Shown: positions 38,600 to 40,096, counted from the first letter of the stretch. The stretch is DNA of 53,280 bases from Escherichia coli (GCF_003334355.1 NZ_QOWP01000028.1); one strand, 5' to 3'. The notes: a model not told the origin generated them from the sequence alone. Made by a program: numbers and translations.

Positions 38600-40096
38600 A
38601 TGCAGGGCACAAAAATTCGACTTTTAGCGGGCGGTTTGCTGATGATGGCCACTGCTGGCTATGTGCAGGCAGATGCGCTCCAGCCTGATCCAGCATGGCA
38701 ACAGGGGACGCTTTCCAACGGTTTACAGTGGCAAGTGCTGACCACCCCCCAGCGTCCCAGCGATCGTGTTGAAATTCGCCTGCTGGTTAATACCGGTTCG
38801 CTCGCCGAAAGTACACAACAGAGCGGTTACAGTCACGCCATCCCTCGTATTGCGCTAACGCAAAGCGGTGGCCTTGACGCAGCACAGGCGCGTTCATTGT
38901 GGCAGCAGGGGATCGACCCTAAACGCCCGATGCCGCCGGTAATTGTCTCTTATGACACCACGCTGTTTAATCTGAGTTTGCCCAATAACCGTAACGATTT
39001 GCTGAAAGAAGCGCTCTCTTATCTGGCAAATGCCACTGGCAAATTGACCATCACACCAGAAACCATCAACCACGCGCTGCAAAGTCAGGACATGGTGGCA
39101 ACCTGGCCTGCCGATACTAAAGAGGGCTGGTGGCGCTATCGTCTGAAAGGGTCAACCTTGTTAGGTCACGATCCTGCCGATCCGCTGAAACAACCCGTTG
39201 AAGCGGAAAAAATTAAAGATTTCTATCAGAAATGGTACACCCCGGATGCAATGACGCTACTGGTGGTGGGAAACGTGGATGCGCGCTCGGTTGTCGACCA
39301 AATAAACAAAACGTTTGGCGAACTGAAAGGCAAACGTGAAACGCCAGCTCCGGTGCCGACGCTTTCTCCGCTGCGTGCGGAAGCGGTGAGTATTATGACT
39401 GACGCGGTGCGTCAGGACCGGTTATCTATCATGTGGGATACGCCGTGGCAGCCGATTCGTGAATCAGCCGCACTGCTGCGCTACTGGCGTGCGGACCTGG
39501 CCCGCGAGGCGCTGTTCTGGCATGTTCAGCAAGCGTTAAGCGCCAGTAACAGCAAAGACATCGGTCTTGGATTTGACTGCCGTGTGCTGTATCTGCGTGC
39601 GCAGTGTGCCATCAACATCGAATCACCAAACGACAAGCTGAACAGCAACCTTAATCTGGTGGCGCGTGAACTGGCGAAGGTTCGCGATAAAGGTCTGCCG
39701 GAAGAAGAGTTCAATGCGTTAGTGGCGCAAAAGAAACTGGAGCTGCAGAAACTGTTTGCCGCCTATGCACGAGCTGATACCGATATTCTGATGGGTCAGC
39801 GGATGCGTTCGTTGCAAAATCAGGTTGTCGATATCGCGCCGGAGCAATATCAGAAACTGCGCCAGGATTTCCTTAACAGCCTGACGGTGGAGATGTTAAA
39901 TCAGGATCTGCGTCAGCAGTTGTCGAATGATATGGCGTTAATACTGCTGCAGCCGAAAGGCGAGCCGGAATTTAACATGAAAGCGTTGCAGGCGGCCTGG
40001 GATCAAATCATGGCCCCATCGACTGCTGCTGCCGCCACCTCTGTCGCCACGGATGACGTACATCCTGAAGTGACGGATATTCCACCTGCACAGTAA
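38600..40096 (+). CDS. yhjJ: Periplasmic M16-peptidase-family homolog YhjJ (no HxxEH zinc motif)
   Basis: 498 aa; signal peptide (…AGYVQA-DAL); no HxxEH anywhere in the protein. Confidence 0.9.
   Translation: MQGTKIRLLAGGLLMMATAGYVQADALQPDPAWQQGTLSNGLQWQVLTTPQRPSDRVEIRLLVNTGSLAESTQQSGYSHAIPRIALTQSGGLDAAQARSLWQQGIDPKRPMPPVIVSYDTTLFNLSLPNNRNDLLKEALSYLANATGKLTITPETINHALQSQDMVATWPADTKEGWWRYRLKGSTLLGHDPADPLKQPVEAEKIKDFYQKWYTPDAMTLLVVGNVDARSVVDQINKTFGELKGKRETPAPVPTLSPLRAEAVSIMTDAVRQDRLSIMWDTPWQPIRESAALLRYWRADLAREALFWHVQQALSASNSKDIGLGFDCRVLYLRAQCAINIESPNDKLNSNLNLVARELAKVRDKGLPEEEFNALVAQKKLELQKLFAAYARADTDILMGQRMRSLQNQVVDIAPEQYQKLRQDFLNSLTVEMLNQDLRQQLSNDMALILLQPKGEPEFNMKALQAAWDQIMAPSTAAAATSVATDDVHPEVTDIPPAQ

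Follow-up and report, generated by a model that had tools for sequence, protein, structure and literature searches.

The gene downstream of dctA in Escherichia coli, yhjJ (bipP), encodes an exported M16-fold protein lacking the zinc site of its peptidase relatives

Identity and layout of the yhjJ locus

We analyzed a 53,280-nucleotide stretch of Escherichia coli DNA (NZ_QOWP01000028.1 in GCF_003334355.1), referred to here as the window. Between dctA and the convergent gene kdgK lies an intact open reading frame, together with the following features.

38444..38474, plus strand: intrinsic-terminator-like hairpin with a U-tract after dctA, found by terminator scan and RNA folding (13-bp stem)
38492..38518, plus strand: weak sigma-E-like candidate promoter, TGACATT-N15-TCTAA, found by pattern scan (−35 element matching at 4 of 7 positions)
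38590..38594, plus strand: AGGGG, Shine-Dalgarno-like, 5 nt before the yhjJ ATG, by direct reading of the sequence
38600..40096, plus strand: yhjJ (bipP) coding sequence, intact, ATG start, 498 amino acids plus stop
40095..40134, plus strand: hairpin directly after the yhjJ stop and before the convergent kdgK (ΔG, −20.6 kcal/mol; z = −4.59)

The encoded protein is identical to YhjJ of K-12 MG1655 (b3527) at 496 of 498 residues, and both differences (A466 and A479 in the window, V466 and T479 in K-12) fall in the poorly conserved C-terminal region. A 1.9-kb segment carrying the gene was found at ≥95% identity in 5423 of 5426 complete E. coli genomes and is 100% identical to several E. coli chromosomes in which the gene is annotated as yhjJ. 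The gene order of the window is also that of K-12: bcsC, pdeK, dctA, yhjJ, convergent kdgK, pdeH, and yhjG. A review reports that YhjJ has been renamed BipP, the primary paper being that of Park et al. (PNAS 2025; PMC11789061). The bipP forward primer given there, ATGCAGGGCACAAAAATTCGAC, corresponds to positions 38600 to 38621 of the window.

Existing annotation describes the product in general terms. The two RefSeq annotations compared call it “M16 family metallopeptidase” (NZ_CP026399.1) or “peptidase M16 family protein YhjJ” (NC_000913.3). The NCBIfam models gave only subthreshold matches (YfmF, 26 bits against a cutoff of 285; YfmH, 23 bits against a cutoff of 250), and therefore no curated family names YhjJ. 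An Rfam scan of positions 36000 to 43000 returned no RNA family. As a side observation, the locus is flanked by two cyclic di-GMP phosphodiesterase genes, pdeK (34922 to 36910; named hmsP in one genome) and pdeH (41308 to 42120), and it adjoins the bcs cellulose cluster.

Transcriptional context

The original prediction placed yhjJ right after dctA, and this is where it lies: dctA ends at 38379 on the same strand, 220 bp upstream. The hairpin within this gap is strong (ΔG, −21.1 kcal/mol; z = −4.87), with none of 200 shuffled sequences folding as well. The strong hairpins on both sides of the gene suggest that yhjJ forms a monocistronic unit; kdgK lies on the opposite strand.

Published data connect yhjJ to the sigma-E response. 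The gene is induced 8-fold in a table of the E. coli sigma-E regulon, and chromatin immunoprecipitation in Salmonella located a high-affinity sigma-E site upstream of yhjJ that has no recognizable consensus. This published dependence prompted our pattern scan, which gave a single weak candidate promoter, at 38492 to 38518, that is not counted as evidence here. A scan for sigma-70 promoters upstream of yhjJ gave no site.

The position next to dctA is also not a property of the family. Distant BipP-family genes with approximately 40% identity (L007:5556-7016 from GCA_000518745.1 and L005:8001-9518) sit in different neighborhoods, one beside ppiC-rep-gppA-rhlB-trxA-rho and the other between genes for GAPES3-domain and beta-lactamase-fold proteins, the latter also near a BrkB/YhjD-family gene. 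Adjacency to dctA is therefore not conserved, and in E. coli it looks incidental.

Export signal and M16 fold

The protein begins with features of a secretory signal.

38600..38671, plus strand: Sec-type signal peptide, residues 1 to 24, MQGTKIRLLAGGLLMMATAGYVQA, by heuristic sequence features

A basic n-region (K5 and R7) precedes a hydrophobic core from L8 to G20 (Kyte-Doolittle maximum, 1.92), and assessment by hand places the likely cleavage site in a V-x-A motif, V-Q-A24/D25, so that the mature protein would start with DA. These features agree with the clear signal peptide of the original prediction. BipP is also described as a predicted periplasmic protein by Park et al. (PMC11789061), who built a bipP-mScarlet fusion for localization.

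The assignment to the M16 group, likewise part of the original prediction, is borne out by both domain and structure searches. Pfam Peptidase_M16_C (PF05193) covers residues 200 to 377 (E = 5.6e-24), and Peptidase_M16 (PF00675) gives a weak, partial match to residues 46 to 158 (E = 1.1e-5; model positions 2 to 107 of 149), consistent with the two-domain alpha/beta fold of the family. In a search of the PDB, the best match was 3GO9, an “insulinase family protease” (E = 2e-198), followed in pairwise and profile comparisons by PqqL, FusC-type proteases, the mitochondrial processing peptidase (MPP), and cytochrome bc1 core proteins. Entry 3GO9, a structural-genomics entry from Yersinia pestis, is a YhjJ ortholog that aligns over residues 8 to 480 and itself reads H-L-L-P-R at the position of the zinc motif. 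A full-text literature search for “3GO9” found no citing paper within the searchable collection.

The closest solved active relatives are PqqL and FusC (E = 4e-18 in pairwise comparison and 2e-30 by profile), near which the FusC paper had already placed YhjJ. These enzymes (PDB 6OFS/6OFT and 6B03) are periplasmic proteases of Enterobacterales, and the two domains of their N-terminal pair both align to BipP. However, they are four-domain proteins of ∼930 amino acids with an intact HxxEH and an E-x6-E helix, whereas BipP is a two-domain protein that lacks both motifs. Loss of catalysis within an M16 fold, with a binding or structural role retained, also has parallels in MPP-alpha and in core proteins 1 and 2 of cytochrome bc1. 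Those proteins act within M16 heterodimers or respiratory complex III, whereas BipP binds a TPR lipoprotein that serves as the adaptor of a serine protease.

Loss of the zinc-binding site

According to the original prediction, YhjJ lacks the inverted zincin motif HxxEH. The protein contains exactly five histidines, which are those listed in that prediction: H79 (SHAIP), H158 (NHALQ), H190 (GHDPA), H308 (WHVQQ), and H488 (VHPEV). None lies in an HxxEH motif, and a scan of all 498 residues found neither HExxH nor any other H-x(2-4)-H pair. As a protein of this composition is expected to contain HxxEH only ∼0.002 times by chance, absence of the motif is uninformative by itself, and its meaning comes from homology. 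We therefore located the former active-site positions in YhjJ using pairwise phmmer alignments, a 20-sequence family profile, and a MAFFT alignment that included PqqL and PtrA derived from the K-12 genome.

38834..38848, plus strand: vestigial zinc-motif position, H79-A-I-P82-R83, from alignments to PqqL, PtrA, and FusC
39080..39103, plus strand: Q161 to T168, at the position of the E-x6-E helix that carries the third zinc ligand, from MAFFT column mapping

Both H80-E83-H84 of PqqL and H88-E91-H92 of PtrA align to H79, P82, and R83 of YhjJ. The downstream glutamates, E160/E167 in PqqL and E162/E169 in PtrA, align to Q161 and T168, although this alignment is less certain than that at the HxxEH position, and the region is rearranged in every member of the BipP clade in the family alignment. 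The five catalytic and metal-binding positions H, E, H, E, and E thus read H79, P82, R83, Q161, and T168, with four of the five replaced. The alignment check named in the original prediction is thereby answered, as it identifies which residues stand in for HxxEH and for the downstream glutamates.

The one residue that is retained is not constrained in the family. Klebsiella-type orthologs have Arg in place of H79, and distant members have Trp, Ser, Phe, Val, or Thr. Close relatives read HAIPR, HFIPR, HLIPR, HVIPR, HFLPR, RFIPR, RFLPR, or HFIPQ at this position, and distant members read WLIPQ, SLISK, HLLAR, HLLSQ, HLLTK, FSLFK, VQLIK, or TLTPR. Across the 20 members of the family alignment, there is no invariant histidine, which speaks against a noncanonical but complete metal site. 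The invariant acidic and cysteine residues are D30, D55, D216, D280, C327, C336, and E415; W178, R181, W283, and R333 are invariant as well. Since D30 and E415 belong to the published NlpI-binding pocket and C327 and C336 look like a disulfide (both described below), these residues do not indicate an alternative zinc site. Judged from these comparisons, YhjJ has lost every zinc-binding or water-activating residue except a nonconserved first histidine, and because of this loss, it is predicted to be unable to act as a metallopeptidase.

Boundary of the inactive family and an intact relative

To delimit the inactive group, we compared searches of different depths. HxxEH was present in none of the 120 best listed relatives from a word-indexed homolog search, but this set holds close relatives only, and an exhaustive search of representatives was needed to find the family boundary. 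When 1.84 billion cluster representatives were searched with YhjJ, 44 matched at E ≤ 1e-30. The boundary was counted on the 82 representatives of at least 400 amino acids among the top 150 listed. Nine lacked HxxEH: eight full-length, two-domain, BipP-like proteins (34 to 45% identical) and one near-identical 418-amino-acid sequence that matches YhjJ only over residues 196 to 400. All of the other 73 listed representatives of this length have HxxEH; their median length is 941 amino acids, that of the four-domain PqqL type.

The inactive clade is further marked by a pair of cysteines, the only two in the protein.

39578..39607, plus strand: Cys327 to Cys336 (codons 39578-39580 and 39605-39607), invariant in the BipP clade

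The pair is absent from PqqL and other active relatives, with the exception described next. It probably forms a disulfide in the periplasm, and it is not mentioned in the available portion of PMC11789061.

Among the representatives listed, the closest relative that retains the site is a 943-amino-acid, four-domain M16 protein of Plesiomonas shigelloides (P0131/P0273; L004:8001-10832, CP195150.1). Over its N-terminal half, this protein shows 36% identity to YhjJ (E = 1e-91), and the same half carries the otherwise BipP-specific motifs LQPDPAW, YAR, and PEQY and the cysteine pair. In contrast to BipP, it has kept HFLEH, ERGVILGE, and the second M16 half and is probably an active protease. Its gene is not beside a dctA-like gene. 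In a neighbor-joining tree without bootstrap support, the Plesiomonas protein is sister to the whole inactive two-domain BipP clade. This placement suggests that BipP arose by a single truncation and inactivation of a PqqL-type ancestor. The intact relative also shares motifs at positions of the BipP pocket for NlpI. A more speculative and rather unlikely reading is therefore that the active ancestor of BipP was already docked on NlpI.

Conservation of the published NlpI-binding interface

The original prediction proposed a binding or scaffold role for a catalytically inactive protein. The inactive M16 homolog is supported by our sequence comparison, and the binding role is supported by Park et al. 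(PMC11789061), who demonstrated binding to NlpI and had already pointed out the missing HxxEH. In their genetic analysis, multicopy bipP suppresses the lethality of deleting both mepS and mepM, and deletion of bipP aggravates mepS mepM and endopeptidase mutants. [quoted passage not shown] It competes with MepS, MepH, and MltD for the outer membrane adaptor NlpI, and their degradation by Prc is therefore slowed. The hyperactive variant BipP(N130K N225K Q284R) pulls down NlpI and, in vitro, slows NlpI-dependent but not NlpI-independent degradation; with purified wild-type BipP, no effect or binding was detectable in vitro, so that these observations hold for the triple mutant only (PMC11789061).

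An AlphaFold model in the same paper places R28 of NlpI in a BipP pocket formed by D30, A32, L47, Y389, A390, P414, and E415. Interface mutations on either the BipP or the NlpI side abolish function. Low-resolution cryo-electron microscopy showed extra density on NlpI, the interface being that of the AlphaFold model fitted to the map (PMC11789061). Three segments of the window protein contribute to this pocket.

38687..38701, plus strand: D30-P-A32-W-Q34, N-terminal part of the pocket for NlpI R28, with the residues given in PMC11789061 present
39764..39769, plus strand: Y389-A390, part of the NlpI pocket, ≥90% conserved; A390D abolishes function (PMC11789061)
39839..39844, plus strand: P414-E415, part of the NlpI pocket; E415 invariant, P414 ≥90% conserved

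All 11 BipP residues named in PMC11789061 are present in the window protein, and they include those of the interface and those altered in the hyperactive mutant. Across the 20 family members, the pocket residues D30, A32, Q34, L47, Y389, A390, P414, and E415 are invariant or at least 90% conserved; within the N-terminal segment, no variation occurs at D30, P31, or W33, and conservation at A32 and Q34 is at least 90%. The window protein is thus like BipP of K-12 in its orthology to b3527, in its locus order (pdeK-dctA-yhjJ-kdgK-pdeH), in its R28 pocket, and in its predicted export to the periplasm, as judged from the hand-assessed signal features.

Alternative explanations

One alternative is that YhjJ is an active metalloprotease with a noncanonical metal site. 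This reading takes in a proposal made for Salmonella, in which YhjJ would be a secreted zinc protease of the NRD type that cleaves host autophagy proteins. In its favor, the protein retains the M16 fold, most orthologs have H79, and LC3B binding in vitro and altered LC3 recruitment in yhjJ-deletion Salmonella have been reported (Autophagy 2019; PMC6693458). That study, however, assumed proteolysis from the Pfam domain and demonstrated no cleavage, and its premise is undercut by the Salmonella ortholog (P0067), which also reads SHAIPR; its LC3B binding data lie outside what the present sequence analysis addresses. In YhjJ, Pro stands in place of the general-base Glu and Arg in place of the second His, neither downstream Glu remains, and even H79 is replaced by Arg, Trp, Ser, Phe, Val, or Thr across the family. 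The idea is contradicted because every former ligand position varies, and the conserved residues that might have formed a different site are no histidines: D30 and E415 belong to the NlpI pocket, and the probable disulfide explains C327 and C336. BipP also acts nonproteolytically in the experiments of Park et al. (PMC11789061). We consider an active protease very improbable on these grounds.

In many M16B enzymes, an active ∼50-kDa subunit is joined by an inactive one. YhjJ could accordingly be the noncatalytic half of a heterodimeric M16B protease, binding substrate for an active partner in the manner of MPP-alpha or of the inactive subunit in the Sphingomonas A1 enzyme. The presence of MPP and cytochrome bc1 core proteins among the PDB profile matches fits this picture. 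No M16 gene is adjacent, however, the neighbors being dctA and the convergent kdgK, and PMC11789061 names no other E. coli M16 proteins than PtrA and PqqL, which are self-contained, four-domain proteins of >900 amino acids. The mature protein also has no glycine-rich loop, with at most two Gly per 12-residue window, and the direct partner that has been identified is NlpI, a TPR lipoprotein (PMC11789061). With no partner gene, no such loop, and NlpI as the partner, an MPP-alpha-like role has very little to recommend it. Still less credible is a functional coupling of YhjJ to DctA through cotranscription or a role in C4-dicarboxylate uptake, a link implied in the original prediction. It draws on the fact that yhjJ directly follows dctA on the same strand, but the strong terminator-like hairpin and U-tract in the 220-bp gap, the sigma-E reports for yhjJ in both E. 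coli and Salmonella, and the distant family genes without a dctA-like neighbor all argue against it, as do the known bipP phenotypes, which concern the cell wall (PMC11789061). Three readings were thus rejected: an alternative metal site (no invariant His), an MPP-alpha-like partner, and a dctA operon (hairpin with U-tract).

BipP as a competitive brake on NlpI-Prc

With high confidence, we identify the window gene as bipP, encoding an exported, inactive two-domain M16 fold that acts as a competitive brake on NlpI-Prc. In this model, BipP would be exported to the periplasm with its two-domain M16 (pitrilysin/insulinase) fold kept. Its mature N terminus (D30, A32, Q34, and L47) and C-terminal helices (Y389, A390, P414, and E415) would form a pocket that captures R28, a residue in the N-terminal helix of the outer membrane adaptor NlpI. 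NlpI captured in this way would be sterically unable to hand MepS, MepH, and MltD over to the protease Prc, and because presentation is blocked, these cell wall hydrolases would build up under conditions of low DD-endopeptidase activity.

The absence of the zinc motif and the noncatalytic function of YhjJ/BipP were both published in January 2025 (PMC11789061), and the present finding therefore adds no new biology. The independent transcription-unit layout, gene identity, active-site loss, and interface conservation come from our own analysis; NlpI binding, substrate competition, the genetics, and the low-resolution cryo-electron microscopy with its AlphaFold model are taken from PMC11789061. 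The small additions made here are the intact-site sister relative in Plesiomonas and the conserved, family-specific cysteine pair. BipP is a physiologically important regulator, as it sets the rate at which hydrolases that enlarge the E. coli cell wall are destroyed. The practical value of the analysis is one of correction: the label “M16 family metallopeptidase” invites the wrong functional inference, and at least one host-pathogen model (PMC6693458) rests on the assumption of an active zinc protease, for which the sequence of the Salmonella ortholog gives no support.

Two analogies drawn by Park et al. (PMC11789061) place BipP among other envelope regulators. EnvC and NlpD, with degenerate LytM (M23) domains, are likewise dead metallopeptidase folds that regulate the cell wall, although their fold is unrelated to that of BipP. 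The YejM-LapB-FtsH circuit offers a second example of an anti-adaptor that tunes envelope proteolysis; YejM, however, blocks the contact between adaptor and protease, whereas BipP blocks that between adaptor and substrate.

A further idea, which we regard as speculative and rather unlikely, is that the peptide-binding cleft remaining in the inactive M16 fold serves as a sensor for a signal that activates BipP. Candidate ligands may be a peptidoglycan stem peptide in cross-linked form or the exposed tail of a protein, either of which would build up at low DD-endopeptidase activity. Such a ligand may favor the NlpI-binding conformation that is mimicked by N130K/N225K/Q284R.
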